Source: Pseudomonadota bacterium | Lineage (GTDB): Archaea; Thermoplasmatota; SW-10-69-26; JACQPN01; JAJPHT01 | Direction: 5' to 3' | Length of the DNA stretch: 64,000 bases | Assembly: GCA_021325135.1 (NCBI GenBank) | Contig: JAJPHT010000020.1 | Location: 1 to 64,000, forward strand | Shown here: positions 1,313 through 60,367 of the stretch, in pieces | Layout of the letters: each line of letters starts with the position of its first letter | How positions within the stretch are numbered: the stretch's first letter is position 1 | Translations under genes and position numbers: made by a program | The notes under the pieces: generated by a model | Database searches by the model: none | What the model saw: the letters and a program-made list of their open reading frames with translations, nothing else | What the model was told of the DNA's origin: nothing

Positions 1313-1350
1313 CGCGGCCTTGTGATATCACGAGGCCGCGCGTCTTTTTC
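1313..1350 (+). terminator. Terminator-like hairpin after the duplicated tuf tail
   Basis: CGCGGCCTTGTGATATCACGAGGCCGCG palindrome followed by CTTTTT; centred on TGATATCA. Confidence 0.55.
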
Positions 1351-2273
1351 TCATTCTCGACGTCCGAGCGCGAGCCCTCCCGCGTCGCTGCCCTTCCTTG
1401 GGCGGGGGCGCGCGGGCGCAGGAGCCACGCGAGGGCCTTGCCCGACGGCCCCGCGGGAGCGGCGGGCTCAAAGGATCTCGGGCGGGTGGTCGAGGAGCTC
1501 CGTCGCCGTCCGCTTCGAGGCCTTGACCAGAAGATATCTCGATCCGGGGATGGGGCCGTCTCCTCGAAGGGCGGCAGGCCCGCGTCGTTGAAGACGCGGA
1601 GGGCGAGCCGGGGGCTGGTCCGGTGGATCACGGGGCCGTGGGCCACCGCCGGAGCGAGGGGGGCTTTGCTGGAGCGCGGCACGGAACGTCGCATGGCCCA
1701 CGGCGGTCACCGTGGCGTGACGTTGACGGGGGCCTTCGTCTCGTGGAAGACCACAAGCGCCACCTGCCGCGGCTGGAGGGCAGCACACCTGGAAAGCGGC
1801 AGCATCATCATCGCGCACGCCGCGAAGGCCAGCCATCGCACCGGCTCCGACGGGGTGTCGGCGCATCACCGTGGCGGACCCGGGCGCGGGCCGCAACCCC
1901 TCGTTCGTGCGCCCGCGCTCCGCCTCTCCTTCGCGGCCCTGCCCACGGGCATCCCCTTGCACCAGAGGCTGGAGGTCGAGGGCGACCTCCTTGGCGCGCA
2001 CCACGCGGCGCAGGGGAAGGCCCCGCGCCTGCAGTTCGGCCGCTTCCGCGCTGGCCGGATCGTCCGGTCCTGAAGGGTGAGGGAACAGGCCGGACGGTCC
2101 GCCGCGACGGGAAGGCAGGTACGTTCGCGAACCCGGATATGGCGCGCCGGGGGGAAGTATGCGACGATGACGCGCGGAGGGCCGTGGCGCGCGGCGGTGC
2201 GCGGCGGTTCAGCGCGGTGATCCCTGGTGAAGGGACCAGAAGCTTGACGTGCGAAGCGTGCCGGGGCAGTCGC

Positions 2274-2837
2274 GTGCAACGCCTCACGATCTCGCTGGAC
2301 GACGATCTGGCCGATGCGCTGGATGCGCTCCAGGAGAACGGAGGGGACTCCAAGGCGAACCTCATCCGGCGCGCGCTGCGCATCTACGTGAAGCGTCAGC
2401 GGGGGCGCGACCGGCCGACGGACCACGACCTGCGGACGTGGACCGAGCTGCTGGCCAACCGCGAGCACGTGATCCTGGACGTCGCGCACGTGCGCCTCTT
2501 CTTCGAGCAGCTGGCGGGCGCGCCCGCGTCGTTCTGGGCGGGGCTGCGCGAGATCGGCGCGGAGCACGGGCGGCAGTACCGCGACAAGGGGATGGCGGAC
2601 GTGCTGGACATGCTGCGCGTCATGGAGTCGGCCAACTGGTTCTACCTGGCGCCGGAGTCCGAGAGGAGCTGGGCGCTCATCCTCACGGAGCCCAGCGCGA
2701 AGCCGTTCGTGAAGGCGTTCCTGGAGGGGTTCGTGAGCCAGCTGGACGCGCACGCGGAGGTCATCGAGGAGCGCACGAAGCTGCGCGTCCGCGCCTCCGC
2801 CGTCCCGAGAAGCGGGCTGGGCCGCGCGCGGGCGTGA
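2274..2837 (+). CDS. CopG-family ribbon-helix-helix transcriptional regulator with C-terminal domain
   Basis: N-terminal RLTISLDDDLADALDAL...SKANLIRRALRIY is a typical RHH; GTG start inferred. Confidence 0.8.
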   Translation: MQRLTISLDDDLADALDALQENGGDSKANLIRRALRIYVKRQRGRDRPTDHDLRTWTELLANREHVILDVAHVRLFFEQLAGAPASFWAGLREIGAEHGRQYRDKGMADVLDMLRVMESANWFYLAPESERSWALILTEPSAKPFVKAFLEGFVSQLDAHAEVIEERTKLRVRASAVPRSGLGRARA

Positions 2838-2843
2838 GGCGCC

Positions 2844-3053
2844 TCAAGGCAGGATGCTGCGGCACTCGGCGGGCGCGCCGAGCTTGACGCCCGCGCAGCC
2901 AGGCCCGTAGACGACGTTCACGTCGCCCACGTTGCAGTGCTCGTAGAGGTCGTCGTCCAGGTCGCACGACGCGGCGGGCGGGTCGCCCGCGTGGACGAGG
3001 GGGGCGAAGGTCGCAAGGAGGAGCACGAGAAGGGCGGCGGCTGCGGCGCGCAT
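2844..3053 (-). CDS. Small secreted 4-Cys protein
   Basis: Signal peptide MRAAAAALLVLLLATFAPLVHA; acidic mature region with 4 Cys; GC3-rich codons. Confidence 0.65.
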   Translation of the reverse strand: MRAAAAALLVLLLATFAPLVHAGDPPAASCDLDDDLYEHCNVGDVNVVYGPGCAGVKLGAPAECRSILP

Positions 3054-3162
3054 CGGCGCGCCATGGGCGCAGGGTGGCTTGGACTTCGCTCCGCTTCATG
3101 CGAAGCGCTCCGCGCGCGAAGCGCTCAAGACGCCCCTGCGTCATGCGGGCGCGAGGCTGTCC

Positions 3163-3384
3163 ATGAAGCTCCTTCTTGCGATCCTCGTCTGCGCCGTCGC
3201 GCTCCCCCTCGTCGCCTCCCCGGCGTCCGCCACGCCGCCGGTCTGCCTGGAGAAGGGCGCCACCGTCCTCACGACCTCGGTGGACGTCCGCCTCACCTGC
3301 GGGCCGCGCGTCGCCGTGGTCCAGTGCCCGCCCGTGGGCGAGGGCCCGTGCCTCTTCTGGAGCACGGACAACCTCCTCGCCTAG
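3163..3384 (+). CDS. Small secreted 4-Cys protein
   Basis: Signal peptide MKLLLAILVCAVALPLVASPASA; mature region with 4 Cys. Confidence 0.7.
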   Translation: MKLLLAILVCAVALPLVASPASATPPVCLEKGATVLTTSVDVRLTCGPRVAVVQCPPVGEGPCLFWSTDNLLA

Positions 3385-3508
3385 GCGGGTCGGCCTTCCG
3401 CGCGGCCCCGGGCCCGGCTGCCCGCCTGGCCGTGCTGCGCGATGGCTAGGCGAGGCTTCACGGCTGCCAGAGCGATGGCTTATCAGGGAGAAGCCCCAAC
3501 CGGGGGCG

Positions 3509-3982: not shown

Positions 3983-4059
3983 GCGCGTCCCGCTTCCTTC
4001 CCCCGAGAACCAGGCGCCCCCCTTTTCCCGCCCAAGCCGTTGCCCATCGTGGTGATCGC

Positions 4060-5890: not shown

Positions 5891-6800
5891 GCTTCCCGAC
5901 GTGACGGTGTACGTCGAGGCACTGCGCGAGCGCGTGCTGGGCCAGCCCCTGGTGGCGGCGCGCGTCGCGAGCCCCTTCGTGCTGCGCACCTTCGAGCCTC
6001 CGCTGCGGGCCGTGCAGGGGCGCCGCGTGCTGGAGGTCCGCAGGATGGGCAAGCGCATCGTGCTCGCGCTGGAGGGGGACCTCTTCCTCGCCATCCACCT
6101 CATGATCGCGGGCCGCCTCGCGTGGCGTCCCCCTGATATCAGACCCAAGGGGCGTTCGCAGCTCGCCGCGCTGGAGTTCCCCGAGGGCTCGCTCCTCCTC
6201 ACCGAGCAGGCGACGCGCCAGCGCGCGGCGATCCACGTCGTGGCCGGCGAGGCGGAGCTTCGCGTCCTCGACGCGGGAGGGATCGAGCCCCTGGACGCGA
6301 CGCCCGCGCAGTTCGCCGAGGCGCTGCGCCGCGAGCGGCACACCCTCAAGCGCGCCATGACCGACCCCAAGATTCTCTCCGGCGTGGGGAACGCGTACAG
6401 CGACGAGATCCTCCACCGCGCGCGCCTCTCGCCCATGCAGATGACCACGAACCTCGACGAGGAGGAGATGGCGCGCCTCCACGACGCCACCCGCCTCGTC
6501 CTCCTGGAGTGGACCGACCGGCTCCGCGCCGAGCGCAAGGGGAAGTGGCCCACCAAGGTCACGGCGTTCCGCGAGGGGATGGCCGTCCACGGCCGGCACG
6601 GGGAGCCCTGCCCCGTGTGCGGGACCGAGGTGCAGCGCATCGTGCGGGGCGAGTCGGAGTCCAACTACTGCCCCCGCTGCCAGACCGGGGGGCGCATGCT
6701 GGCGGACCGCTCCCTCTCCAAGCTCATGCACGACGACTGGCCGGCCACCATCGACGAGTGGGAGGAGCGCCGCGGCCCCGGCCCGAAAGGCCCTTTATGA
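5883..6800 (+). CDS. mutM: Fpg/Nei-family DNA glycosylase/AP lyase
   Basis: N-terminal PELPDV, R.GK, H2TH motif GVGNAYSDEILHRA, C-terminal CPVCG...YCPRCQ zinc finger. Confidence 0.9.
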   Translation: MPELPDVTVYVEALRERVLGQPLVAARVASPFVLRTFEPPLRAVQGRRVLEVRRMGKRIVLALEGDLFLAIHLMIAGRLAWRPPDIRPKGRSQLAALEFPEGSLLLTEQATRQRAAIHVVAGEAELRVLDAGGIEPLDATPAQFAEALRRERHTLKRAMTDPKILSGVGNAYSDEILHRARLSPMQMTTNLDEEEMARLHDATRLVLLEWTDRLRAERKGKWPTKVTAFREGMAVHGRHGEPCPVCGTEVQRIVRGESESNYCPRCQTGGRMLADRSLSKLMHDDWPATIDEWEERRGPGPKGPL

Positions 6801-8431: not shown

Positions 8432-9399
8432 CCGCCCTCCGCGGCCTTGCGCAGGCGGTTCATCACGGCGAGGCCCAGCCCCTCCTCGGGGATCGCCTCC
8501 ACCACGATGGCGTCGTAGCCCTGCGCGTCGAGGTCGCGCAGCAGGGCGAAGAGCTGGCGCGCCCACGCCTCCGCGTCGCGCCGCGCGCCGGGCACGCGGA
8601 CGTGGGGCCCCGAGAGGCCGCTCTCCGCCGCCGCCACGATGGCGACGCGGCCCGTGAGGCGCTCGGCCTCCTGCGCGGCGCCGCCCGGTGGTGATATCAC
8701 GACGCGGGCGCGGGGCGCGTAGTGGCGGTAGCGGGTGCCGGGCGAGAGGACGGGCCCCTCCCGCGAGGGCTCCGCGACGCGCAGGCCGGGGACGACCGCG
8801 CGCAGCCGCTCCAGCCCGACGCCGCCGGGCCGCAGCACCGTGGGGGCCCCCACGAGGGAGACGACGGTGGACTCGACGCCCACGCGGGTCGGGCCGCCGT
8901 CGAGGTAGACCGACACGGCGTCGCCCAGGTCCGCGAGCGCGTCGGCCGCCCGCGTGGGGCTGGGGCGGCCCGAGCGGTTCGCGCTGGGCGCCGCCACAGG
9001 GAGGCCCGACTCGGCGAGGAGCGCCAGGGCGACGGGGTGCGCCGGCACGCGGAGGGCCACGCTGTCGAGCCCTCCTGTGGTGATATCAGGGACCTTGGGG
9101 TCGCGGGGGAGGACCAGCGTGAGGGGGCCGGGCCAGAAGGCGCGCGCCAGGGCGTCGGCCTCGGCGGGCCACGCGCGGCAGAGCCGCCGCGCCGCCGCGG
9201 CGTCGAGGGCGTGGACGATGAGCGGGTTGTCGGCGGGGCGCCCCTTGGCGGCGAAGACGCGCGCCACCGCGTCGGGGCGCAGCGCGTCGGCGCCCAGGCC
9301 GTACACCGTCTCGGTGGGGAACACCACGAGGTCCCCGCGGCGCAGCGCGGCCGCGGCGGCGCGGATGCCCTCGGCGTCGGGCGCCGCGAGACGGGTCAC
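8428..9399 (-). CDS. sua5: L-threonylcarbamoyladenylate synthase Sua5
   Basis: FPTETVYGLGADA, KGRP.DNPLIVH, APSAN.SG, HYAP, SUA5 C-terminal domain. Confidence 0.96.
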   Translation of the reverse strand: MTRLAAPDAEGIRAAAAALRRGDLVVFPTETVYGLGADALRPDAVARVFAAKGRPADNPLIVHALDAAAARRLCRAWPAEADALARAFWPGPLTLVLPRDPKVPDITTGGLDSVALRVPAHPVALALLAESGLPVAAPSANRSGRPSPTRAADALADLGDAVSVYLDGGPTRVGVESTVVSLVGAPTVLRPGGVGLERLRAVVPGLRVAEPSREGPVLSPGTRYRHYAPRARVVISPPGGAAQEAERLTGRVAIVAAAESGLSGPHVRVPGARRDAEAWARQLFALLRDLDAQGYDAIVVEAIPEEGLGLAVMNRLRKAAEGG

Positions 9400-10454: not shown

Positions 10455-11294
10455 GTGGTCACCCTCGTGCTGGAGGGCGGCGCCGCGCGCGCCACGTACG
10501 GCAGCGGCGTCGCGGACGCGCTGGCCGTCGCGGGCCTCGTCCCGGAGGCGATCTACGGCACGTCCGCAGGCGGCGCCATCGCCGCGTGGTACGCCGCCGG
10601 GCAGACCGCCGTGGGCGTCACGACGTGGGACCACATCGTGGACCGCTCGCTCCTCTCCTACCGCCGCGCCCTGGTGCGCCGGCCCATCCTCAACTTCTCG
10701 CGGCTCTACGGCGAGATGTACCCCAACCACTTCGGCATGGACGTCGCGAAGCTGCGCGCGGCGCCCTTCCCCGTGTGGGTCACGCTGGCGGACGCCGACC
10801 GGGCGGAGAGCGTGTACGTGGACCTCCGCAAGGCGCAGGACCCGTTCCGCGTGCTGCACGCCACCAGCGCGCTCCCCCTCGTCTCCGAGGCGCCCGTGGA
10901 GATCGAGGGCCGCCGCTACGTGGACGGCGGCATGACCGACCCCATCCCGGTGGCGAAGGCCATCGAGGACGGCCACCGTGATATCATCGTGGTCGCGAGC
11001 CGCGTCGCGGGCGAGCGCCGCCCCGAGCCGCAGATCGTCGTGCGCGCGGTGGGGCGCAGGTTCCCCGCGCTGAGGGAGGCGACAGCGCAGCACAGCGCGC
11101 TCCAGAACGCCGCGCTGCGCCTCGCGCAGAGCCCGCCCCCGGGCGTGCGCGTGCGCCTCGTGCAACCCTCCCGCGACCTGGGCGTCTCGCGCCTCACGCG
11201 CGACGTCGCGAAGCTGCGCGCCGCCGTGGAGGAGGGGCGCCGCGACGGCGCGCGCCTCGCGCAAGACCTTGGCCTCGTCCCCCGGACGGCGTAG
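10455..11294 (+). CDS. Patatin-like phospholipase
   Basis: LVLEGGAAR, GTSAGG nucleophile elbow, DGG motif. Confidence 0.9.
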   Translation: MVTLVLEGGAARATYGSGVADALAVAGLVPEAIYGTSAGGAIAAWYAAGQTAVGVTTWDHIVDRSLLSYRRALVRRPILNFSRLYGEMYPNHFGMDVAKLRAAPFPVWVTLADADRAESVYVDLRKAQDPFRVLHATSALPLVSEAPVEIEGRRYVDGGMTDPIPVAKAIEDGHRDIIVVASRVAGERRPEPQIVVRAVGRRFPALREATAQHSALQNAALRLAQSPPPGVRVRLVQPSRDLGVSRLTRDVAKLRAAVEEGRRDGARLAQDLGLVPRTA

Positions 11295-12767: not shown

Positions 12768-13972
12768 ACGCCGAGGCGATCCGCAAGGACTTCCCGCTGC
12801 TGTCGAAGCCCGACGCGCCGGTCTACCTGGACAACGCCTGCATGACGCTGAAGCCCCGCAGCGTCATCGAGGCCGTCACGCGCTACTACGAGGAGACGCC
12901 CTTCTGCGCGGGTCGCGCCGTCTACGAGGGGAGCCTCCGCGTCGAGGAGCAGATGGAGGCCGCGCGCCGCGCGCTGGCCTCCTTCCTGGGCGGGCGCCCC
13001 GAGTCGACGGTCTTCACCAAGAACGCCACCGAGGCGATCAACCTCGTCGCGCACGCCCACCCCTGGAAGCGCGGCGACGTCGTGCTCACCACCGACCGCG
13101 AGCACAACAGCAACCTCGTCCCCTGGCAGATGCTATCAAGCCGCGGCGTGCGCCACGAGGTGGTGCCCTCCCGCGGGGACGGGACGCTGGACCTCTCCGC
13201 GTGGCGCGACCGCCTCGCCCGCGGCGACGTGGCCCTCGTCGCGGCCGTGCACGTCTCCAACCTCGACGGCCACGAGGTCCCCGCCCGCGAGCTGGCGGCC
13301 CTGGCCCACGAGGCGGGCGCGCGGCTCCTCCTCGACGGCGCGCAGGCCGCCGCCCACGGGCCCGTGGACGTCGCGCGGCTGGGGGCCGACTACTACGCCG
13401 TCTCGCTCCACAAGATGCTGGGCCCCACCGGCGTCGGCGCGCTCCTCGCGACGCCCGACGCCGTCGCCGCGCTGGGGCCGTTCATGACGGGGGGCGACAC
13501 CGTCGCGCGCACCACCTACGAGGACGCCGTGCTGCTGGACGCGCCCGCCAAGTTCGAGGCCGGGCTCCAGAACTACGCCGGCTTCGCCGGGAGCCTCGCC
13601 GCCATCGAGTACCTGCGCCGCCTGGGCATGGAGGAGGTGCGCGCCCACGGCAAGGCCCTCATGCAGCGCGCGGCGAAGGGCCTCGAAGGCGTCGCGGGCC
13701 TGCGACTCGTGGGCGCGCCCCTCGCCACGCGCGGCGCCATCGTCCCCTTCGCGCTGGAGGACGCCGACCCGCACACGCTGGCGATCCTGCTGGAGGACAA
13801 GCACCGCATCCTCGTGCGCAGCGGCGACCACTGCCTCCACTCGTGGTTCAACGCCCACGACGTGCCCGGCGCCGTGCGTGCCTCCTTCGGCCCCTACAAC
13901 ACGACCGTCGAGGCCGACCTTCTCGTGGAGGCCACGCGCGGCATCCTCGAAAGGCTCGCCTCTGCGCGGTGA
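12758..13972 (+). CDS. Cysteine desulfurase, SufS-like (class V PLP enzyme)
   Basis: YLDNA, EHNSN..PWQ, DGAQA, SLHKMLGPTG (PLP Lys), RSGDHC (catalytic Cys). Confidence 0.9.
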   Translation: MGLNAEAIRKDFPLLSKPDAPVYLDNACMTLKPRSVIEAVTRYYEETPFCAGRAVYEGSLRVEEQMEAARRALASFLGGRPESTVFTKNATEAINLVAHAHPWKRGDVVLTTDREHNSNLVPWQMLSSRGVRHEVVPSRGDGTLDLSAWRDRLARGDVALVAAVHVSNLDGHEVPARELAALAHEAGARLLLDGAQAAAHGPVDVARLGADYYAVSLHKMLGPTGVGALLATPDAVAALGPFMTGGDTVARTTYEDAVLLDAPAKFEAGLQNYAGFAGSLAAIEYLRRLGMEEVRAHGKALMQRAAKGLEGVAGLRLVGAPLATRGAIVPFALEDADPHTLAILLEDKHRILVRSGDHCLHSWFNAHDVPGAVRASFGPYNTTVEADLLVEATRGILERLASAR

Positions 13973-15103: not shown

Positions 15104-15265
15104 GCGGGTCCCATTCCAGGGGGTGGATATAACGGTGATGGGGTCCCCCGGGGTGGGGGCGAGGGCCGGCGGGCGGGCCCTGCTATCAGGGCAGGCGGGC
15201 GGGCGCCCGCCATGGCGCTCCCGCGCCTGCGATGGGTTCAAGGCCGGGGGGCGAATGGGCCCTTC

Positions 15266-17247: not shown

Positions 17248-18198
17248 TCAGGGGAGCGTCCCCAGGTCGCGGTCGACGACGAGCTGGGCGTGCCCCGCGA
17301 CCGCGCCGTGCTGCCCCGTCGCGACCTCCTCCAGCAGGCGGAAGCCCAGCGCGGTCATGGCCTGCGAGTCGTCCCCCTCGTCGCCGTGCCCCGCGAGGCC
17401 ATCGACGTTCTCCCCGCCGTAGCTCGTGAGCGTCGTCCCCTCGTGGCCAGCCTCGCCGCGCAGCACGGTGTAGAACTCGGTGGGCACGCCCCGGGCCGCC
17501 AGGGCGGCCTCCATCTCGCGGCCCTGGTTGTAGGGCACGAGCCCGTCGTTCACGTCGTGGAGGAGGATCGCCTCCTGGAGGCCCTCGAACGCGTAGGCGC
17601 GCAGCGCGGCGCTGCGCTCGTGATAGCATCCTGGCGCCACGGCCGGGCTGCCGCCGCACTCCTCCTGGATGCGCTGGGCCGCGAGCTTCGCGAAGCCGTT
17701 GGCGGGGGCCAGCGCGGTGGCCTCGGCCCACGTCTCGGCCAGCTGCGAGAGCCCTTCGCTGTCGACCCAGGCCGTGAAGAAGCCGTGCTCGTCCGCGAGG
17801 ACCATGGAGGCCACCGCGGTGCCCATGCTGACGCTGAAGAGGACGCCGTGGGAGAAGCCCCACTCGCCGCGCACCTGCGCGAGGGCGGCCTCGGTGTCCA
17901 GCGCGCCGGCCCTCAGGGGGAAGCCGTCCACGGGCCCCGAGTAGTCCATGGCGAACGCGACGAAGCCCAGCTCCGCGAGGCGCGCGAGGTGCGCGTCGTG
18001 GTCCGCCGCCTGGTGGCCGTAGCCGTGGAGGATCACGACGAGGCCGCGGGGCGCGCCGCAGGGCGTGGCGATGCGGCCGTGCGCGGAGCCCACCACGAGG
18101 TCCCCCACGCTGGAGGCGCACGGGGGCGCGCCGCCCCCCGCGGCCAGGGTGGGGGCGAGGAGGGCGAGCGCGAGGCCGGCGATCGCGAGGGCGCGCAT
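17248..18198 (-). CDS. Secreted alpha/beta hydrolase
   Basis: Signal peptide; LHGYG oxyanion motif, SVSMG nucleophile, H..NDGLVP, later His. Confidence 0.8.
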   Translation of the reverse strand: MRALAIAGLALALLAPTLAAGGGAPPCASSVGDLVVGSAHGRIATPCGAPRGLVVILHGYGHQAADHDAHLARLAELGFVAFAMDYSGPVDGFPLRAGALDTEAALAQVRGEWGFSHGVLFSVSMGTAVASMVLADEHGFFTAWVDSEGLSQLAETWAEATALAPANGFAKLAAQRIQEECGGSPAVAPGCYHERSAALRAYAFEGLQEAILLHDVNDGLVPYNQGREMEAALAARGVPTEFYTVLRGEAGHEGTTLTSYGGENVDGLAGHGDEGDDSQAMTALGFRLLEEVATGQHGAVAGHAQLVVDRDLGTLP

Positions 18199-35623: not shown

Positions 35624-38600
35624 GTGGCGCGCCTCGGGCTCGCGGCCAAGCTCGCGCGGCGCAACCTGCTGCGCCGCCGCGCGCAGACCGCCATCGTCCT
35701 CGCCGGGCTCTTGGTGGGCACCGCCGTCGTCGCGGCCTCGCTCTCCGTGGCGGACAGCCTCCGCTACGGCATCCGCCGCTCCACCTTCGACGGGCTGGGC
35801 CCCGCCGACGAGTTCGTCCAGCTTGCGGGCCAGCGCTACTTCCCCGCCGGCGTCTACGACGCGCTGAAGAACGACAGCGCGCTGCGCGGCGCGACGCGCG
35901 GGCTCTCGCCGGTGGTGATCGACTCGGGGAGCGTCCGCGACGCGCGCACCCGCGAGACCGAGCCCGCCGTGGGCATCGCGGGCTTCGACCCCGCCGCGGA
36001 CCGCCCCTTCGGCCTCTTCACGCTCCAGGACGGGCGCCGCACGGACGGCGGCGAGCTTGGGCCGCAGGACGCGTACCTCGCGGAGGACGTCGCGGCGCGC
36101 CTCGACGCGAAGCCGGGCGACACGCTGGTGGTGGGCGTGCAGCGCGCGGGGTTGCCGCTCTCCGACGTGGTGTTCAGCATCCACGGCAACATCTCGGGCG
36201 TGGGCGGCGGCTGCGTCTCGCCCCCGGTGCCTGTTCCCGTCGTCCCCGGCGCGCCCCCCGTGCCGCCCGTCCCGTGCGCCTACACGCCCGACCCGGTGGA
36301 CAACGTCACGTACACGATCCCCGTGGGGCGCGGCGCCGCGCTGCTCACCGTGCTGCTGGAGCCCATCGGAGCCGAGGACTCGCCGACCCGGCCCGATCTG
36401 GATATCATCGCGACCTCGCCCAGCGGCAACCGCACCGAGGCGACGCAGGGGCTTCCCGGCGCGCCCAGCGACCCCGCCGTGCTCCGCATCGAAGGGAATC
36501 GATATCTCGAGCGCGGCGACTGGACGATCCAGGTCACGACCAAGGGGGGCGCGGAGGGCAAGTTCAACGGCGGCATCTTCGTCTCCTACGCGCAGTACGA
36601 CGCCACCGGGCAGGGCGCGGGCGCCGGGGAGACGGTCATCGGCGACGCGGACGCCTCGGCCTACCTCGCGGTGGGCGCCAGCGCCGCGGCGCACGAGAAC
36701 GTCACGCTCAAGGGCATCGTCAAGCGCGAGGGCAAGGGGCAGTTCCTCGGCACGACGGGCCTCTTTCTCAACCTCCCCGGCGCGCAGGCTCTCGTGGGGC
36801 AGCCCGGGCAGGTCAACGCCGTGAAGATGAGCAACGACGGCAGCGTCGAGACGGGCTGGCAGCGCGGCGCCGCCGCGACCGCTGCCGCCACGCGCGTCCT
36901 GGACGCGCAGCGCGCCGCGCACCCGGACGACCCCGTGTACGACCACCTCGCGCCCGCGCCCGTGAAGGCGCTGGGCCTCGCGGGCGCGGAGCAGGAGAGC
37001 AGGTTCTACCGCGACTTCCTCGCCGCCGTCTCCACGCTCACCGTCATCGCGGGCGTGCTGCTGGTGGTCAACGTCTTCGTGCTCCTCGCGCAGGAGCGCC
37101 AGCGCGAGCTTGGCGCCGCGCGCGCCATCGGCCTCTCGCGCGCCGACGTCGTCGCCTCCTTCGTCGTCGAAGGCGCGATCCTCGCCGCCCTCGCCGCGGT
37201 GGGCGGCGTGCTCGTGGGCCTCGTCGGCGCCGCGGGCGTCCTCTTCGGCTTCGACTTCATCCTCAGCGCCGTGGGCACGGGGCTGGGCACGTTCGTTCTC
37301 CATCCCGAGCCCGCGAGCCTCGCCCTCGCGGCGGGGCTCGGCTTCGTCGTGACGCTGGCCGCGGCCGCAGGGGCGTCGTACCGCATCGGCGGCATGAACG
37401 TCGTGCGCGCCCTGCGCGGCCTGGAGGACGACCCCGCCCACCGGCGCGGCGCATGGGCCGGCGCGGCTGCGCTCGTCCTCCTGGCCGTCGTCTCGCTCCT
37501 CCTGGGCCCCTTCGCCGCATGGGCCTTTGCGCCCCCCCTCCTCACGGGCGCCGCCGCGGCGCTCCTCGCGCGCCGTCGCTGGGCCCCGCCGCTGGCGGGG
37601 CTCCTTCTCGTGGCGGAGGGCGGGCTTGCCATCTTCCTCCTCACGCCGCCCGCGGACGCCGTGGGCCGCGTCCTGGGCGTCCTGCGCGGCGTGCCCGTCG
37701 CGCTGGGCCTGACGCTCCTGGCCCTGGGCGCGCCCGCCCTCGCGCGCGGCGCGGAGCGATTGCTATCACGCGTGCGCGCGCTGCGGCCCACCGCGCCCCT
37801 CGCGGTGCGCTATCCCCTCCGCCGCCGCGGGCAGACGGGGCTCACGGTCACGATGTTCGCCTTCGTGACGCTGATCCTCGTCTTCTTCAGCATCTTCGGC
37901 ACGACCTTCGCGCTGGACATCGCGGGCGAGACGGGCGGCTACGACGTGTACGCCACCACCGACGCGCCCTACAGCGACCTGCGCTACGCCTACGACCAGC
38001 AGCCCCCCGGCGCGCGCGACGCCTACGCCCTGGCCAACGTCACCTCGCAGGACCCGCTCCTCGTCGCCACCGTCGCGGGCGGGAGCCTCCTCACGCTGGA
38101 CGGCGCGCGGCCGCACTACAAGGGCGCGCCCGTGGACCGCGTCTTCGCCTCGCTGCCCAGCTTCCCCAAGCGCGAGCAGTTCGCCTTCGCCGAGCTCGAC
38201 CCCGCCTACCCCAACGGCAGCGCCGCCTTCGAGGCCCTCCTCAAGGACCCCACCCTCGCCATCGTCAGCGTCGCATACACGCTCGACGAGACGGGCAACC
38301 CCGGCGCGCACCACGTCGGCGCGGACCTCACGCTCCACTTGGCCACGGGCGACAAGCATCTGCGCGTCATCGGCGTCATGAAGGAGCTCTACCTGGGCGG
38401 CGTGTGGGTGAATCCCCTGGTGCTGCGCACGGGCTTCCAGCAGGTCAGCGGCGGCTACCTCCTCAAGGCCGCGCCGGGCCACGAGCCCGCAGCCGTCGCG
38501 CGGCAGCTGGAGCGCAGCTTCGACGGCACGGGCCTCCACGCGGTCGACCTGCGCACCGAGGCGGGCGTCGTCCTGGAGGAGAACGAGCAGTTCCTCCGCA

Positions 38601-40036: not shown

Positions 40037-41122
40037 ATGAAGCTCTGGCCCCTGGTCGTGGGCGCCGTGCTCTTCGTCGCGGGCGTCCAGGCCTGGAGCG
40101 CGGCGGCCCTCCTGCGCGACCGCGCCGAGGAGACCTCCCTGGCCACGCAGCTTGCCGCGGAGCGGGCGCGCTCCCACGCGCTGGCGACGGAGGCGGACCG
40201 CGCGGACGCGCAGCTCCAGGCGGCTCGCGCCGAGGCGGGCGCCCTCTCGGGCGCGCTGGCGGGGAACCAGAGCCGCGCGGCGTCGCTCTCCACCGATCTC
40301 GCTGCGCTGGGGCGCGAGCGCGACGCGGCCCTTGCCCAGGTGAACGCGACCGAGGCGGAGCTGGCCGACGCCAAGGGCGGCATCTTCGACCGGCAGCAGC
40401 TCCTGGGCGAGCTTCAGGCGCAGCGGGCGGACTACGCGGCCCTCGACGCGCGATATCAATCGGCGCTCGATGGCGCGTTCCCGACGCTGGCGAGCATCCA
40501 GGCGGGGAACGTGACGTGGCGCTTCGTGGACGCCGAGGGCGTCGCGCATGCGTGGCGCTACCCCCTGGAGGACTACCAGGCCTACGCGCAGCGGGCGCGG
40601 CCCGACGCGGTGGTCGCCATGCGCACGGCGGACGGGACGATCCTCACGGCGGCGGACCCGCGCCCCTACGTCACGCCCTCGTTCTTCGCCTCCGACATCG
40701 GGGACCTCACCCGGGGGAAGACCGACCGGGAGTTCGTGCGCGACGCGTTCGCGGTGAAGGGCCAGCTGGTGGTCTACGGCTTCGCGCTGGCGGACCAGGA
40801 GGGGCACGCGTACAAGTATCCCGCCGAGACGCTGACCGAGGGGTCGGGCCTCTGCGGCGACACCACCATCCTCCTGGCGAGCCTGCTCCTGGCGGGCGAG
40901 GCGCAGGCCCACTACGGGCTCAGGCTCAAGGTGTGGATCGTGGACGTGGACCCCGAGCGCGCGGTCACGATCGCGGACCCCGAGACGGTGAACCACGCGC
41001 TCCTGGAGGTGGACTTCCGCGACGGCGAGACGTGGGACCTGGAGACCACCACCGCGGGGCTCTACCGGTATCCGGAGGTCCACGGGTGGAGCTTCGACGT
41101 CGAGCCGCCCGCCGGGGCGTGA
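40037..41122 (+). CDS. Membrane-anchored coiled-coil protein with transglutaminase-like Cys-protease domain
   Basis: N-terminal TM, heptad region, YP.ETL..G.GLCGD.TILLASLL, HALLEV, LETT. Confidence 0.78.
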   Translation: MKLWPLVVGAVLFVAGVQAWSAAALLRDRAEETSLATQLAAERARSHALATEADRADAQLQAARAEAGALSGALAGNQSRAASLSTDLAALGRERDAALAQVNATEAELADAKGGIFDRQQLLGELQAQRADYAALDARYQSALDGAFPTLASIQAGNVTWRFVDAEGVAHAWRYPLEDYQAYAQRARPDAVVAMRTADGTILTAADPRPYVTPSFFASDIGDLTRGKTDREFVRDAFAVKGQLVVYGFALADQEGHAYKYPAETLTEGSGLCGDTTILLASLLLAGEAQAHYGLRLKVWIVDVDPERAVTIADPETVNHALLEVDFRDGETWDLETTTAGLYRYPEVHGWSFDVEPPAGA

Positions 41123-41727: not shown

Positions 41728-42621
41728 GTGGAGCGCCCCTCCCGCGCGCGGACGATCCTCGAGTTCGTGAAGATCGAGCACGCCCTCTTCGCGCTCCCCT
41801 TCGTGCTCGCGGGCATGATCGAGGGGTTCCGCGAGCGCGGCGTCCCGCTGCGCCCCACCGCGGAGGGCGCGCGCCTCCTGCTCCTCGTCCTCGTGGCGGC
41901 CGTCTCCGCGCGGACGCTGGCCATGACGCTCAACCGCATCGTGGACCGCGGCCTCGACGCGCGCAACCCGCGCACCGCAGGCCGCGCCATCCCCGCGGGC
42001 CTCCTCTCCACGCGCGCCGCGTGGGCGCTGGCCGCGGTCTCGCTCGTCCTCCTCGTCGCGGCCTCGGCGCTCCTCAACCCCCTGGTGCTGGCGCTGACGC
42101 CCGTCCTCGCGCTCCTCTTCTTCGCCTACCCCTACGCGAAGCGCGTCACCTGGGCGTGCCACTTCGTGCTGGGCCTCGCCTTCCTCTGCGCGCCCGCGGG
42201 CGGCTTCCTGGCGGTGACGGGCTCCTTCGCGGGCTGGACGCGCGTGCTGCCCCTGTCGCTGGCGGCCATGGCGTGGGTGTCCGGCTTTGATATCATCTAC
42301 GCCCTGCTGGACCTCCCCTTCGACCGCGCGAACGAGGTCAGGAGCGTGCCCGCCGTCTTCGGCGAGGGCCCCGCGCGGCGCGTGGCGGTGGGGCTCCACG
42401 TGCTCACCGTGCTCCTCCTCGCCATCTACGCCCGCCTCGCGGGCTTGGGCTGGCCCATGTACCTCGCCGTCGTCGCCATCGCGGCGCTCCTCGCCTACGA
42501 GCACGCGACCGTCGACCCCAGCGACCCGGTGGCCATCAACAAGGCGTTCTTCCAGGTCAACGCCGTCGTGGGCTGGGTCGCGCTGGCGGGCGTCGCCGCC
42601 GCCCTCTGGCTCGCCGCGTGA
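41728..42621 (+). CDS. ubiA: UbiA-family polyprenyltransferase (MqnP-like)
   Basis: KIEH..FALPF, AM..NR..DR..DA.NPRT..R.IP, YPY.KR, GFDIIYA..D..FD. Confidence 0.92.
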   Translation: MERPSRARTILEFVKIEHALFALPFVLAGMIEGFRERGVPLRPTAEGARLLLLVLVAAVSARTLAMTLNRIVDRGLDARNPRTAGRAIPAGLLSTRAAWALAAVSLVLLVAASALLNPLVLALTPVLALLFFAYPYAKRVTWACHFVLGLAFLCAPAGGFLAVTGSFAGWTRVLPLSLAAMAWVSGFDIIYALLDLPFDRANEVRSVPAVFGEGPARRVAVGLHVLTVLLLAIYARLAGLGWPMYLAVVAIAALLAYEHATVDPSDPVAINKAFFQVNAVVGWVALAGVAAALWLAA

Positions 42622-47197: not shown

Positions 47198-49150
47198 TTG
47201 GACGCCATCGCCCTGGCCTTCGCGGCGGACCTGGCCCTCGGGCTCTTTCTCCTGGCGCTGGCCGCCCTGGCGCCAAGGGCCGCGCGTCCCGGCCCCTCGC
47301 GCTGGCTCCTGGCGGCCTACCTTGCCCTCGTGGGGCTCGACTACGTCTCGGACGGCCTGGCGCGGCTGCTGGACGTGAAGACCCACACCCCGCTGCTCGA
47401 TTGGCTCTCCATCGGCACGCAGGCGCTCGACCCGCCCGTGCTCTTCCTCTTCGCCCTGGCCGTGACGGGCGCGCGGGTGCGGTGGTCCCGCGCGCTCCCC
47501 GCGTGCGCCGGGATCCTCCTCGTCACGTTCCGGCCGCAGCTTCTGGGCATCCCCGTGCAGGTCGGGCCCTTCGCCTACGCGGCCGTGGCGCTGGCGGCCT
47601 ACGTCGGGAGCTTCGCCCTCCTGGCGCGCAGCCACCTCGCGGCCGCCGATGGCGACGAGCGCGAGCCGCGCGGCGTGCTGGTCGTCGCCTTCGGCGTCGT
47701 GTGCCTCACGCGAGTTCCCCTGGCGCTCATCGACTTCCGCATCCTGCCCGTCGGGCCGCCCGGCCGGCAGGGAAGCGCCAGCTGGATGCTGGAGGCCCTT
47801 CTCTTCGGCGCGTTCGTCGCCTTCGCGCTGCTCTCGCGCGCCTTCGCCCGGCCCTCCGCGTGGCCCCACGCCCGCCGCGTCCTCATCGCCACCGGAGCGC
47901 TGCTCACGGTCCTGGATGGCGAGTGGCTGCTGCGGTTCGTCCCCTACCTCCAGGCGCCCTCCTACGCGCTGCTCTGGTCGGCGCGGTGGTTCCTCTTCCT
48001 TGCCGTCGTCATCGCGGGGCTGCGCCGCCACGACCTGCTCGGGCTCTCCGCCACCGTGGCGCCTTGGCTGCGCAGGACGTATGCGGCGCTCCTTGGCGTC
48101 GTGGCGGCCGTGCTCGCCGCCTCCTTCGCGCGGGCGCTCCCGGGCGTGTCGGACCTGGGCGCGGCCGCAGCCGGCGCCGCCGTGGTGGGCGCGGGGGTGG
48201 GCGCCGGCTTCGCCATCCGCGCGGCGGTGCCCAGGACGCCTTCGGAGGCCGAGTGGCGGCGCGCCGCCGTCTATCGCGCGCACCTGGCGCTGGGCTCGCC
48301 GCCTGCGGAGCTGGACGCCGCTCGCCGCGAGCTTGGCCTCTCGGAGCGGGAGGCGCGCGCCATCGCGAGCGCCTTCCGCGTGGAGCGGGAGGTCCCCGCC
48401 GACGCGCTGCCGGAGCGCGTGGAGCCCGGCCACGTCCTCCTGGGCCGCTATCGCGTGGAGCGGGTGCTGGGCGTGGGCGCCTTCGGCCGCGCCTACTCCG
48501 CCGTGGACCTTGCCGAGGAGCGTCGCGTCGTCCTGAAGGAGTTGCTCCCGTCGTGGCGCGGAGACGAGGAGGCCCTCGCCCGGTTCCTCCGCGAGGCGGA
48601 GGTCGCGCTGCGCGTCCGCCACCCCAACCTCGTGGGGCTGCGCGGCATCGAGCGGCTCGCCTCGGGGCACGTCCTGGTGCTGGACCACGTCGAGGGCGAG
48701 ACGCTCGCGGCGCGCCTGGCCCGCGGACCCCTGGAGGAGGCGGAGTCGCGCCGCCTCGCCCGGGACGTCCTGGAGGCGCTCGACGCCCTGCATCGGCGCG
48801 GCATCCTGCATCGCGACGTGAAGCCCGAGAACGTCATGCTGCGGCCCGACGGCTCCGCGGTGCTGCTGGACTTCGGCGCCGCCACGGCCCCCGGGACCGG
48901 CACGCGCCCCGCGCTGGGCCACCCCGGCACGCCGGGGTACGCGAGCCCCGAGCAGCGCCGCGGCGAGCCTTTGGCCCCCTCCAGCGACCTCTATGGCGTG
49001 GGCGCGCTCCTGTGGCGGGGCCTCACCGGCGAGCCGCACCCTCGGGGCCGGGCGCCTCCGTCCTGGGCCGCGCCCCTGGCGAAGGCCACCTCGCCGCGCC
49101 CGGAGGATCGATATCAGGACGCGGACGCGTTCCTCGCCGCCCTCTCGTGA
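47198..49150 (+). CDS. Multi-TM membrane Ser/Thr protein kinase (C-terminal Hanks-type domain)
   Basis: About 8-9 N-terminal TM segments; LG.GAFG, VVLK, HRDVKPEN, DFG, GTPGYASPEQ, DLYGVG, P.DR. Confidence 0.92.
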   Translation: MDAIALAFAADLALGLFLLALAALAPRAARPGPSRWLLAAYLALVGLDYVSDGLARLLDVKTHTPLLDWLSIGTQALDPPVLFLFALAVTGARVRWSRALPACAGILLVTFRPQLLGIPVQVGPFAYAAVALAAYVGSFALLARSHLAAADGDEREPRGVLVVAFGVVCLTRVPLALIDFRILPVGPPGRQGSASWMLEALLFGAFVAFALLSRAFARPSAWPHARRVLIATGALLTVLDGEWLLRFVPYLQAPSYALLWSARWFLFLAVVIAGLRRHDLLGLSATVAPWLRRTYAALLGVVAAVLAASFARALPGVSDLGAAAAGAAVVGAGVGAGFAIRAAVPRTPSEAEWRRAAVYRAHLALGSPPAELDAARRELGLSEREARAIASAFRVEREVPADALPERVEPGHVLLGRYRVERVLGVGAFGRAYSAVDLAEERRVVLKELLPSWRGDEEALARFLREAEVALRVRHPNLVGLRGIERLASGHVLVLDHVEGETLAARLARGPLEEAESRRLARDVLEALDALHRRGILHRDVKPENVMLRPDGSAVLLDFGAATAPGTGTRPALGHPGTPGYASPEQRRGEPLAPSSDLYGVGALLWRGLTGEPHPRGRAPPSWAAPLAKATSPRPEDRYQDADAFLAALS

Positions 49151-51295: not shown

Positions 51296-52408
51296 TCAGG
51301 CCACCGCCAGGGGCGTCAGCTCGCGGGGGATGGGGTGATAGCTTCCGAAGGCGTACTCGGGGACGAAGCCCGCGCTGGTGATGAGGGGCGTGAGGTCCTC
51401 CTTCTTGACGAAGGCCCACGTCTTGCCTCCGGCCGCCTGGAGGATGCGCTCCTCGAAGGCCGCGCCGCCGATGTCGTCGACGCCGAAGTGCAGCGCGACC
51501 TGCGCCATGGGCTTGCCCACGGTGACCCACGGGAGCTTGATGTGGGAGACGTTGTCCAGGTAGAGCCGCGCGATGCTCACCATGCGCAGCGTGTCGAACG
51601 CGCTGGGGCCCATGGCGCCGGTCTTGGCGTGGAGCTCCGTGTTCTCGGGGTTCCACGCGAGGCCCAGGAAGGCGTTGAAGCCGCGGGTGCGGTCCTGCAT
51701 CTCGCGGACGCGGCGCAGGTGGTCGACGCGCTCCTCCGCCGTCTCCACGTGGCCGTAGAGGATGCTCACGTTGGTGGGGATGCCCAGCGCGTGCGCCTCC
51801 TCGTGGACCTGGAGGAAGCGGTCGCCCGCGATCTTGGTGGCCATCATGCGCTTGCGCGCCTCGGGATGGAACACCTCCGCGCCGCCCCCGGGAATGCTAT
51901 CAAGGCCAGCGGCACGGAGACGCCGCAGCGTCTCCGTGATCGACAGCTTCTCGCGCTTGGCGAGGAAGTCGACCTCGACGCCGGTCATGCCCTGGATGTG
52001 GGCCTGGGGGCTGACCTTCTTGAGGCGCCGGAACATCTCCTCGAAGTAGGCGAGGTCGCACTCAGGGGTGAGGCCGCCCACGACGTGCCACTCGTTGACG
52101 CCCACCTTGGCGGCGGCCTTGGCTTTCTCCTCGATCTCGTCCAGGGTCATGAGGTAGGCCTTCTCGCTGCCGCTCTTGGCGAAGAAGGCGCAGAACCCGC
52201 AGTCCGCGGCGCAGATGTTGGTGTGGTTGACGTTGAGGTCCGTGCGGGTGTAGACCTTGTTGCCGTGGCGCTTCGCGCGCTCGCGGTGCGCCAGCCTGCC
52301 CAGGGCGACGACGTCCTGCACGGCGAAGAGGGCCAGGGCGTCCTCGTCGGTGATCCGCTCGCTCCTGGCGAGCTTGCGCTCGACCTCGTCCAGGATGGGC
52401 ATTCTCAT
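51296..52408 (-). CDS. mqnE: Aminofutalosine synthase (radical SAM)
   Basis: N.TNIC...CGFCAF, E.HVVGG, PGGGAEVF, LYGHVET.EERVDH, IARLYLDN..HIK; operonic with mqnA and mqnC. Confidence 0.88.
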   Translation of the reverse strand: MRMPILDEVERKLARSERITDEDALALFAVQDVVALGRLAHRERAKRHGNKVYTRTDLNVNHTNICAADCGFCAFFAKSGSEKAYLMTLDEIEEKAKAAAKVGVNEWHVVGGLTPECDLAYFEEMFRRLKKVSPQAHIQGMTGVEVDFLAKREKLSITETLRRLRAAGLDSIPGGGAEVFHPEARKRMMATKIAGDRFLQVHEEAHALGIPTNVSILYGHVETAEERVDHLRRVREMQDRTRGFNAFLGLAWNPENTELHAKTGAMGPSAFDTLRMVSIARLYLDNVSHIKLPWVTVGKPMAQVALHFGVDDIGGAAFEERILQAAGGKTWAFVKKEDLTPLITSAGFVPEYAFGSYHPIPRELTPLAVA

Positions 52409-55658: not shown

Positions 55659-55665
55659 GCCCTTT

Positions 55666-58221: not shown

Positions 58222-58340
58222 GGTCGTCTCCTCCCCCCATGGTCTGGGGACCCGACCTTAAGGAGTGGGATACGGACGGAAGAGACGGGGCGTTCGGACC
58301 CGTCGCAAGGGGGATGCGCCACCCCGCCCGTGCCCCCGCC

Positions 58341-58763
58341 ATGAGGGCCTTGGAGCGGGCGGCCGGGGGGCTCTCCCTCTTCGCGGGGCTCGTCCACGCC
58401 GACCTGGGGCCCGCCCACTTCCGCGTCTGGTGGGGCTACGGCCTCTTCTTCGCCGTCGCCGCCCTTGCGCAACTTCTCCTGGGGCTGGCGCTCCTCCTGG
58501 ACGCCCTCGACCCCGCCCGCCTGGGGCCCTCCCTGCCGAGGCTGAAGCGCGCGATGTACGCCTCGGGCATCGTGGGGAACGCGCTCCTCATCGGCCTCTA
58601 TGTCCTCACGCGCACGTGGGGCATCCCCCTCTTCGGGCCCGCGGCGGGGGGCATCGAGCGCGTGGCGCCGCTGGACGTCGCGACGGAGATCGCGCAGGCG
58701 GGGACCATCGCGCTCCTTGCGACGCTCCTCGCGAGGACCCCCAAGGGTTATGCGGCGCGCTGA
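58341..58763 (+). CDS. Hypothetical membrane protein
   Basis: AG.VH.....HF..WW.YG.FF, Y..TRT.G.P.GP motif. Confidence 0.75.
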   Translation: MRALERAAGGLSLFAGLVHADLGPAHFRVWWGYGLFFAVAALAQLLLGLALLLDALDPARLGPSLPRLKRAMYASGIVGNALLIGLYVLTRTWGIPLFGPAAGGIERVAPLDVATEIAQAGTIALLATLLARTPKGYAAR

Positions 58764-58777
58764 GGGTGCGCGGCGCC

Positions 58778-59719
58778 ATGGCGCTCCTCCCGGTGGGGTG
58801 GGTCCCGAAGCTGGAGCTGCTCGTCATCGCCGCGGGCCTCGCCTACGTCCTGCGCCCCGCTGTGCCCAAGGCCTACGCGCTGGGCATCCTCATGCTCGCC
58901 GTCTACGCGCTGGACGTCGTGGGCGGCCTGCTGGGCCAGGGGAGCGTCACGCCGGAGCTTGGCTTCCGCGCGGACCGCCTCCTCCACGGCGACGCGTGGT
59001 GGACGCCCGTCACCGCGATGTTCGTCCACGCCGGGCTCGCCCACCTCGTGGGCAACCTGTTCATCCTCCTCACCGCGGGCCCCGCGCTGGAGGACCGCGT
59101 CGGCGAGCGCAAGTTCCTCGTCATCTTCTTCGCCGCCGGCCTCGCCGGCTTCGCCGCGCACGCGATCCTGGCGTACACGACGACCATCGTCACGCCCGGA
59201 GAGCTGGCCGTGGGCGCGTCGGGCGCCATCTTCGGCGTGCTCACCGCCTTCGCGCTGCGCCACCCGCGGGAGCGCCTGCCGCTGATCATGCTCTTCGTGC
59301 TCTGGCTCCCCGCCATCGCGGTCCTGGGCATCTACCTCGTCTACAACGTCGCGCTCATGTTCCTGGACAGCGGCGTCGCGTGGTGGGGCCACTTCGCCGG
59401 CTTCCTCGTGGGCATGGCCTTCGCGTACACGCTCCCCCGCGTCGACCCGCGCTCGCCCGTGGGGCGCAGGCCCCGCGTGGACGCCGAGAAGCTGGCGCCC
59501 TACGCCACGACGCCCGAGACCCGCCGCATCGTCGAGCAGGTGCGCACGCTGAGCACCGGCACGCCCACCAAGGACGACGCCGTCTTCGCCGACGCCTGGG
59601 TGGATCGCTTCTTCTCCAAGGCCACCTGCCCCCAGGGGCACGCCTTCACGCGCTCCGGGACGCACGCCACCTGCTCTGGAGGCGAGACGACGGTGGAGTT
59701 CGCGCGGGCCGCGAAATGA
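58778..59719 (+). CDS. Rhomboid-family intramembrane serine protease
   Basis: T.MF.H....H..GN, GASGAIFG, H..GF..G. Confidence 0.92.
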   Translation: MALLPVGWVPKLELLVIAAGLAYVLRPAVPKAYALGILMLAVYALDVVGGLLGQGSVTPELGFRADRLLHGDAWWTPVTAMFVHAGLAHLVGNLFILLTAGPALEDRVGERKFLVIFFAAGLAGFAAHAILAYTTTIVTPGELAVGASGAIFGVLTAFALRHPRERLPLIMLFVLWLPAIAVLGIYLVYNVALMFLDSGVAWWGHFAGFLVGMAFAYTLPRVDPRSPVGRRPRVDAEKLAPYATTPETRRIVEQVRTLSTGTPTKDDAVFADAWVDRFFSKATCPQGHAFTRSGTHATCSGGETTVEFARAAK

Positions 59720-59732
59720 TATCTCCATTCGC

Positions 59733-59841
59733 CCAGGGTCCAAAGAACGCGATGAGCGCGAAGAGCGCAAAGGACGCGACGACGAAAGGAACCCTCGCGA
59801 CCTTGGCGCTCTTCGCGCTCATCGCGTTCTTTGGACCCTGG
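59733..59841. mobile_element. MITE-like 109-bp palindromic element, family C (copy 2)
   Basis: CCAGGGTCCAAAGAACGCGATGAGCGCGAAGAGCGC ... reverse complement; closely similar to 55666-55780; between convergent genes. Confidence 0.7.
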
Positions 59842-59854
59842 ACCAGAGCAGTCA

Positions 59855-60367
59855 TCACCGCCGCTGCGCCGCCAGGTAGTCCACCACGCGGGAAGCCAGA
59901 GCCCGCGCGTCCCGCGTCGCCTTGAGGTCCATGAGGATCTCGCCCTCGCGCGCGGCGCGGCCCACGACGTACCCGACGAAGGCCATGCGGTGGACGGCGA
60001 AGAAGTGGGCGAGACCCATGCAGGCCAGCTCGCCGCCGCTCTCGGACTCCACCGCGAGGGCCGCGCCGACCTTGCCTTCGAACGCGCCGCGCCGGGCGTC
60101 CTCCCACGTCGCGTCCAGGAGGGCCTTGAGGCGCGCGGCGGGCATGCCGAAGTGGCTGGGCGTCCCCAGGAGGATCGCGTCGGCCTCGCGCATCTTGGCC
60201 GTGATGATATCAAAGGCGTCCGTATTGCGCCGGCCGGGCGCGCCGTAGTCCGCCAGCGCGACGAGGTCCACCTGCGCGCGGCCGCGCACGGCCTTCAGCG
60301 CCTCGTCCAGGAGGACCGTGGTGTTGCCCTTCGCCCGGGGGCTGCCGGAGATCGCCAGGACCCTCAT
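59855..60367 (-). CDS. Flavodoxin / NADPH-dependent FMN reductase family protein
   Basis: ISGSPR..GNT, ADAI.LGTP..F, LKALLD, GKVG. Confidence 0.85.
   Translation of the reverse strand: MRVLAISGSPRAKGNTTVLLDEALKAVRGRAQVDLVALADYGAPGRRNTDAFDIITAKMREADAILLGTPSHFGMPAARLKALLDATWEDARRGAFEGKVGAALAVESESGGELACMGLAHFFAVHRMAFVGYVVGRAAREGEILMDLKATRDARALASRVVDYLAAQRR

Follow-up and report, generated by a model that had tools for sequence, protein, structure and literature searches.

Why should a genome of 71.6% GC carry the AT-rich palindrome TGATATCA over and over, in genes as well as between them and against its own codon bias? We pursued this question from the window, a stretch of 64,000 nucleotides (C36:1-64000, 70-77% GC along its length) of G000, a metagenome-assembled genome of 3.77 Mb in 51 contigs. 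G000 is one of five species of the genus g1 compared here (G000-G004), while G005-G008 represent sister genera. We found that the word is maintained as DNA and constitutes a dispersed chromosomal signal. With a probability of roughly 0.55, we propose that TGATATCA, an iterated palindrome of the HIP1 kind, is read by a dedicated sequence-specific protein.

A dispersed word kept at the DNA level

Within the window, TGATATCA was seen eight times against 0.02 copies expected from dinucleotide-preserving shuffles, and its asymmetric variant TGCTATCA, or the complement TGATAGCA, six times against 0.21. The whole genome holds 210 and 151 copies, respectively; other substitutions at the variant positions, complements included, add up to 8 copies genome-wide for TGTTATCA and to 1 for TGGTATCA. 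An earlier inspection of the letters alone (the sequence-only reading) had given the coordinates of all 14 exact sites correctly, and the codons that it quoted for the SufS-type desulfurase, the permease, Sua5 and the gene at 5883-6800 are right as well. Its list of twelve further one-mismatch copies fared less well: five (26521, 36400, 40451, 49109 and 59717) are one letter off TGATATCA and the others are not, with 47191 reading TGATAGCT, one letter off the variant rather than the palindrome. The exact sites and the five one-letter forms are as follows.

1323..1330, no strand (palindrome): TGATATCA, outside called genes
6134..6141: TGATATCA in the gene 5883-6800(+), read CCT GAT ATC AGA; the G002 counterpart is TGATGTCA
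8692..8699: TGATATCA in the Sua5 gene 8428-9399(-), read GTG ATA TCA CCA; the G002 counterpart is the variant TGATAGCA
9081..9088: TGATATCA in the same Sua5 gene 8428-9399(-), read CCT GAT ATC ACC; identical in G002 and G004
10979..10986: TGATATCA in the gene 10455-11294(+), read CGT GAT ATC ATC; the G002 counterpart is CGATATCA
13131..13138 (+): TGCTATCA in the SufS-type cysteine desulfurase gene 12758-13972(+), read ATG CTA TCA; identical in G002, absent from G001 and G004
15181..15188 (+): TGCTATCA, outside called genes
17621..17628 (-): TGCTATCA in the gene 17248-18198(-), read TGC TAT CAC
24446..24453 (-): TGCTATCA in the Elp3 gene 24069-25640(-), read GCT GCT ATC ACG
33997..34004: TGATATCA in the gene 33959-34735(+), read GAT GAT ATC ACC
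37761..37768 (+): TGCTATCA in the permease-like gene 35624-38992(+), read TTG CTA TCA CGC
42288..42295: TGATATCA in the gene 41728-42621(+), read TTT GAT ATC ATC
51895..51902 (+): TGCTATCA antisense to the gene 51296-52402(-), read CTT GAT AGC ATT
60205..60212: TGATATCA in the gene 59855-60367(-), read TTT GAT ATC ATC
26521..26528: one-letter form TGATATCG, of the enriched class CGATATCA/TGATATCG
36400..36407: one-letter form GGATATCA
40451..40458: one-letter form CGATATCA
49109..49116: one-letter form CGATATCA
59717..59724: one-letter form TGATATCT, outside called genes

Long frames of high GC content at third codon positions served to train a codon log-likelihood model, which called 3,764 genes in G000. 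We then shuffled synonymous codons 30 times within each gene, which preserves the amino acids. Counted against such a null, as the sequence-only reading had proposed, TGATATCA ranks first in enrichment among the 65,536 8-mers (155 genic copies versus 2.0 expected); the corresponding figures are 106 versus 6.3 for TGCTATCA and 90 versus 8.4 for AGCTATCA. The two rare synonymous choices that the palindrome needs are tightly coupled: among 530 x-Asp-Ile-[A..] contexts, 138 hold both rare states (137 of them as the full word), 54 hold one and 338 neither. Genome-wide, Asp-Ile is written 1,353 times as GAC-ATC and 227 times as GAT-ATC, and 137 of the latter carry the extra T and A. About 30% of the permissive contexts, in which the word can be written without changing the protein, are occupied, and the codons involved are rare in G000 (CTA 0.6% of Leu, TCA 2.1% of Ser and GAT 5.6% of Asp codons).

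Independent gene calling placed 12 of the 14 exact window sites in genes, in agreement with the sequence-only reading, with 1323 and 15181 outside. That these lie in different frames, as was also stated, does not apply to the palindrome, of which 6 of the 7 genic window copies and 137 of the 155 genic genome copies (88%) read NNT-GAT-ATC-A. The palindrome is nearly confined to this one frame because TGA is a stop codon and ATA and TCA are costly; the variant mostly reads xTG-CTA-TCA (78), followed by TGC-TAT-CAx (26) and antisense xxT-GAT-AGC-A (20). Confinement to one frame together with enrichment fully explained by Asp-Ile frequency had been named as the outcome that would speak against a DNA-level signal. 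The first is nearly the case, whereas Asp-Ile frequency falls short about 70-fold.

Enrichment of the asymmetric variant is about the same whichever way it is oriented, the antisense copies amounting to about 21 versus 1 expected, and enrichment extends to the spaces between genes (palindrome 20 versus 0.8 expected, variant 17 versus 2.8). It follows that duplex DNA matters and not mRNA. The proposal that a force acts on the DNA rather than on the protein is thus borne out by the amino-acid-preserving null, the coupling, the two orientations, the intergenic copies and the restriction of the word to one genus described below. Among the one-letter neighbours of the palindrome, only TGCTATCA (17x), AGATATCA (10x) and CGATATCA (6x) are enriched; those remaining with an expectation of at least 10 stay near 1x, and ratios at tiny expectations are unreliable. 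A spectrum of this kind fits a pair of half-sites of which one is strict and the other tolerant. G002 has the same spectrum, and the tolerated set can be written as [T>A>C]G[A>C]TATCA with the core GMTAKC; GCTAGC is avoided, like all CTAG words. The preference for particular flanks is mild (G-TGATATCA-C at 38 of 210 sites) and the flanks are otherwise not conserved, so that the word does not belong to a longer repeat.

Almost every contig has copies, at about 1 per 10 kb. Densities are about 47 per Mb within genes and about 41 per Mb between genes, hence with no intergenic excess, and positions along gene bodies are uniform. The density of one site per 2-5 kb claimed before fits the window (one per 4.6 kb), but the genome-wide value is lower, with about one exact copy per 10 kb and about one per 5 kb if relaxed forms are included. 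Short-range spacing is Poisson (coefficient of variation 0.97 versus 0.98 simulated for the 51-contig genome), and regular or clustered spacing was rejected on these values. Sorted by quartile of codon-model score, genes carry 1.28 copies per 10 kb in the lowest and 0.54 in the highest quartile. C46:1-160000, a stretch of 66-68% GC, contains zero exact copies, while the adjoining 57 kb of host DNA at 73% GC contain six; the word-free 160 kb are probably an integrated element. This stretch also carries its own N6/N4 (C46:36104) and C5 (C46:29727-31520) methyltransferase matches.

A role as general promoter element was rejected too. The promoter words of G000 are AAACCC and CTTAT[CG]/TTTAT at -40 to -20 before mostly leaderless starts, and upstream regions genome-wide show no peak of TGATATCA at the TATA position, where these real promoter words stand. 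The upstream regions themselves have an AT-rich peak at -35 to -26, which indicates mostly leaderless transcripts and a B recognition element (BRE)/TATA arrangement of the form AAACCC-TTATC. The sole upstream peak of the word lies at -7, where 21 of 148 starts with TGA at this position read TGA-TATC-ATG. Stop-start junctions therefore carry the word as well, in some cases preceded by GG, as in GGTGAT.

As to the host, its earlier assignment to the archaea proved right: G000 encodes the archaeal markers TBP and Elp3, and no rRNA is assembled in this genome. The window itself contains the full-length gene of an Elp3-type radical SAM/GNAT tRNA modification enzyme (24069-25640, minus strand), which scores 674 bits to TIGR01211.

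Inheritance and turnover within the genus

TGATATCA is specific to the genus g1. Its five species carry 210, 111, 378, 141 and 53 copies, a 7-fold range, compared to 2-5 copies in four sister genera of the same family and 0-9 in other genomes of the order and class. More distant members of the phylum with many copies (G030, G032 and G037) were discarded as further cases, as these genomes have 41-53% GC and their 160-215 copies are only about 4-6x the expectation from composition.

The fate of individual sites was followed in 400 kb of G002, of which 237 kb aligned with G000 at 80% identity. Identical in G002 are 7 of 18 palindromes and 5 of 8 TGCTATCA sites of G000, and several others are present there as a tolerated variant; rare third-position letters outside the word are kept at 19% (T) and 30% (A). 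If only contexts with the same amino acids in both species are counted, G002 retains 6 of 7 sites in either class, although the sample is small. Asp-Ile contexts written in G000 are written in six cases and unwritten in one case in G002, compared to eight and twelve for contexts unwritten in G000 (p = 0.08); for [MLV]-Leu-Ser contexts, the numbers are six and one compared to six and 35 (p = 0.0005). The sites of G000 are nearly a subset of those of G002, which has many of its own, a pattern that favours inherited and maintained sites over parallel writing alone. The word passes from species to species at far more than the neutral rate, and new copies still arise in each species.

Opposite a species-specific site, the other species most often has the common-codon form CGACATCA or the Asp-Val form CGACGTCG; single-step intermediates are rare in this position. 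We also considered amino-acid changes at the sites as proof of the force that writes the word, and set them aside as weak: 40 of 53 species-specific sites lie in four-codon windows that differ between species, against a background roughly estimated at 60%.

Arrays at the METTL5-type gene and at NMD3

A scan for paired copies, followed by inspection of G000, led to two loci at which the word is packed into arrays.

G000 C33:188576-188670 (L045:2576-2672): array in the spacer before a METTL5-type gene; orthologous spacers L113, L114, L115 and L116
G000 C33:201900-201970 (L046:2401-2471): second array, upstream of NMD3; in G004 at L050:1429-1492, just downstream of the NMD3 stop codon

The arrays at the METTL5-type gene are a new element described here. 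They occupy a conserved locus, the spacer between the gene after dnaJ (SecB-like by eye only, with no family match) and the gene of a METTL5-type rRNA m6A methyltransferase, whose nearest solved relatives are PH1948 (1wy7) and human METTL5 (6h2u). G000, G001, G002 and G004 have 4-7 copies in 50-80 bp at this position and G003 has one copy. The last copy abuts the start codon of the METTL5-type gene or lies within a few bases of it, and the order of copies differs in each species of the genus. Seven genomes from elsewhere in the order, representing other genera and families, have the same METTL5-type gene but no array copies. Local density exceeds the genome average more than 1000-fold, and the arrays hold compound palindromes such as TGATAGCAGCTATCA and tandem copies such as TGATATCATGATATCA. 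Such a spacer looks like the binding platform of a sequence-specific protein. That density is kept at one promoter while the internal order changes is our main reason to favour a protein reader over a mutational by-product.

The array beside NMD3 contains compound palindromes of 15-16 bp, TGATAGCAGCTATCA and TGATAGCATGCTATCA. G000 alone has it upstream of the gene. In G004, whose DUF424-NMD3 segment has the opposite orientation to that of G000, it is downstream, and it was not found in G001-G003; a conserved operator at NMD3 was rejected on these grounds. A replication origin at the arrays was rejected as well, with Orc1/Cdc6 genes on C45 and C35 and both arrays on C33. No DNA-binder is evident among the array neighbours (DnaJ, the SecB-like unnamed protein, the METTL5-type methyltransferase, TruD, DUF424 and NMD3).

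What may read the word

How could such a distribution come about? We suggest that the word arises by point substitution wherever coding allows, be it in genes, at stop-start junctions or in spacers. Its reader would be a sequence-specific, probably dimeric, DNA-binding or DNA-modifying protein, which may have arisen or changed its specificity at the base of the genus. If each copy gave a small advantage or a transmission bias, copies would settle where they are cheapest. The arrays at the METTL5-type gene would then be the strongest binding platform of the reader, and the bound sites across the genome might serve the marking of host DNA, nucleoid organisation or another role. In a bolder version, the dedicated protein would read TGATATCA genome-wide as a mark of its own chromosome, one that incoming DNA lacks, and control ribosome-biogenesis genes via the METTL5-type and NMD3 arrays. 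We consider this version doubtful; if true, it would be the first archaeal iterated-palindrome system with an identifiable reader.

Several observations weigh against a dedicated reader. None was identified. Some of the sharing between species could stem from independent writing where both genomes offer the same permissive context, and the Asp-Ile comparison taken alone falls at p = 0.08. Only 3 of 22 alignable G004 sites are exact in G000, so that turnover is substantial. Copies do not gather in promoters and follow Poisson spacing, which is unlike a regulon and gives no sign of a density-dependent function. The fixed distance upstream of genes that marks a transcription-factor regulon is likewise missing, except for the arrays at the METTL5-type gene, and the second array is not conserved. 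Moreover, density is the same in genes and between them, while plain selection for site number would favour cheap intergenic sites. Roles in nucleoid organisation, segregation, uptake or methylation had been suggested from the window alone, and none was confirmed: no methyltransferase of the EcoRV/Dam class was found and spacing is random. A palindromic word, in addition, cannot carry polarity.

The search for a cause among DNA-modifying enzymes covered several families. D12-class methyltransferases (PF02086, the class of M.EcoRV and Dam) have no match in G000, which speaks against a restriction-modification system of the EcoRV type. The EcoRV nuclease family PF09233 gave no match, which carries no weight, as its control was silent everywhere too. 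G000 has four N6/N4 methyltransferase matches, of which C40:132877 has orthologues in G001 and G002 and also in the word-poor genomes G006-G008, and the others are not common to the genus; C5 methyltransferases are family-wide, sporadic or species-specific. No methyltransferase family specific to the genus was found. Two C5 methyltransferases adjoin Vsr-type endonucleases (G000 C8:39295-40792 and C27:116672-118609) in pairs that are not genus-wide, and the pair on C8 lies in a stretch of about 10 kb without genes called by the codon model.

Other words are avoided in coding sequence against the synonymous null, namely CTTAAG (0.05x), CTATAG (0.04x), CTCGAG (0.11x), CGTACG (0.15x), CGATCG (0.23x), CTGCAG (0.31x), TATA (0.2x) and TTAA (0.1x). 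Glu-Leu occurs as the rare pair GAA-TTG 253 times versus 23 expected, in 233 genes and in sense orientation only (antisense 60 versus 55), with GAGCTC avoided (0.33x) and GAGCTT raised (2.7x). GGAATTGG is patchy in the order, with 98, 59, 41, 11 and 2 copies in the five species of g1 and 92 and 98 in two other genera. The GAA-TTG enrichment is separate from the word and perhaps reflects restriction avoidance.

According to Elhai's model of HIP1, an orphan methyltransferase would mark GATATC/GMTAKC, and methylation-directed repair or sequestration would favour mutations to the full word. The 6-bp core is typical of type II enzymes, the genome encodes several methyltransferases and strongly avoids other palindromes (CTCGAG, CTTAAG and CGATCG), and the bias of one-letter forms to the outer letters resembles that reported for HIP1 (PMC4390886). 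Seen from this side, the arrays resemble the GATC cluster at the replication origin of E. coli. However, G000 lacks a D12-class enzyme, the only N6/N4 methyltransferase shared in the genus also exists in sister genera without the word, and the C5 enzymes are family-wide or species-specific. Furthermore, the inner variant TGCTATCA breaks GATATC, and one-letter intermediates are not depleted. Though sequence does not reveal the specificity of such enzymes and a conserved enzyme could have changed its own, we regard the methylation-linked account as unlikely. Still less probable is an account without a reader of the finished word, in which a context-dependent bias of mutation or short-patch repair yields it as a by-product. 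The random spacing, the like densities of genes and spacers, an occupancy of about 30% and the 7-fold range in copy number do resemble an equilibrium of mutation and decay, and G000 has the two Vsr-type endonucleases beside C5 methyltransferases. Yet Vsr repairs T:G toward C:G, opposite to the required change of CGAC to TGAT, and very-short-patch repair by Vsr was rejected for this wrong direction and for pairs that are not genus-wide. Single-step intermediates stand at baseline rather than being depleted, sites are kept well above the neutral rate, many lie where amino acids differ, and a uniform bias would not give arrays at one locus.

We give a similarly low weight to a molecular drive by biased DNA transfer (uptake, packaging or recombination) that spreads the word without benefit to the cell. 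Specificity to the genus, absence from the 160-kb stretch of lower GC content, writing where it is cheapest (from 1.28 down to 0.54 per 10 kb), enriched partial forms and high turnover between species would all fit such a drive. On the other hand, known uptake sequences are non-palindromic and intergenic-enriched while there is no intergenic excess here, arrays fixed at one promoter in four of five species would be left unexplained, and we know of no archaeal uptake signal or receptor. Finally, the word could be an artefact of coding or expression, such as the Asp-Ile dipeptide, a codon-pair effect, or a promoter/TATA or Shine-Dalgarno element, given that 88% of genic palindromes stand in the GAT-ATC frame and that the 21 operon junctions TGA-TATC-ATG include some with GG in front. 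This explanation is refuted for the bulk of sites and very improbable overall: the amino-acid-preserving null yields 2.0 copies, most GAT-ATC pairs carry the extra T and A in spite of the far commoner GAC-ATC, antisense variant copies are as enriched as sense copies, and sites are uniform along genes without a peak at real promoter words.

A dedicated reader thus remains our preferred account, and the closest known systems can be compared with it. HIP1 (GCGATCGC) and alternate iterated palindromes of cyanobacteria are 15- to 300-fold over-represented, and their sites are lineage-specific, spread by substitution and conserved between genomes above the neutral level (PMC4390886, PMC5861425). A cognate orphan methyltransferase accompanies HIP1 where the word is abundant (Elhai 2015, PMC4390886), and the distribution of HIP1 is periodic over 10-90 kb (Xu, Lawrence and Durand 2018, PMC5861425). 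Like HIP1, TGATATCA is an 8-bp palindrome of similar over-representation (more than 10-fold over the nulls), dispersed in genes and spacers, lineage-specific, spread by substitution, conserved above neutral, with one-letter forms biased to the outer letters, and unexplained in function. It differs in its archaeal host, in being an AT-rich word in a genome of 72% GC, against mutation pressure and codon bias, in its roughly 10x lower density (one per 5-10 kb versus about one per kb), in the enriched inner-position variant TGCTATCA, in the absence of a cognate methyltransferase from our findings and in the additional dense arrays at one promoter.

DNA uptake sequences (DUS in Neisseriaceae, uptake signal sequences, USS, in Pasteurellaceae) share with the word a specificity to genus or family, hundreds of copies, preferred coding frames, a lack in foreign DNA and enriched partial forms. 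They are 9-12 nt long, non-palindromic and intergenic-enriched and need a known receptor and competence machinery, whereas our word is palindromic with no excess between genes (41 versus 47 per Mb). Chi (GCTGGTGG in E. coli) is likewise an over-represented 8-mer of about one copy per 5 kb that marks host DNA; it is asymmetric, shares the orientation of replication and is recognised by RecBCD/AddAB, in contrast to a main word that is palindromic and a variant whose orientation follows coding constraints. Operators of the TrmB family, the Thermococcales glycolytic motif TATCAC-N5-GTGATA, have the same half-site letters GTGATA/TATCAC as G-TGATATCA-C, and the promoter arrays are operator-like. Unlike in TrmB operators, the half-sites overlap, with no spacing of 5 between them, and most copies are genic; no TrmB-type gene was found linked to the word. 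A literature search for the word returned only primers and constructs, and the literature searched holds no description of iterated palindromes in archaea.

What does the word mean beyond this genus? HIP1 has remained unexplained for about 30 years, and an independent archaeal case indicates that the phenomenon is not peculiar to cyanobacteria. Five species with 53-378 copies next to sister genera with 2-5 offer a clean contrast for finding the cause, and the arrays at one promoter provide a concrete DNA bait for the reader. In these metagenome-assembled genomes, the word also separates host DNA from integrated elements.

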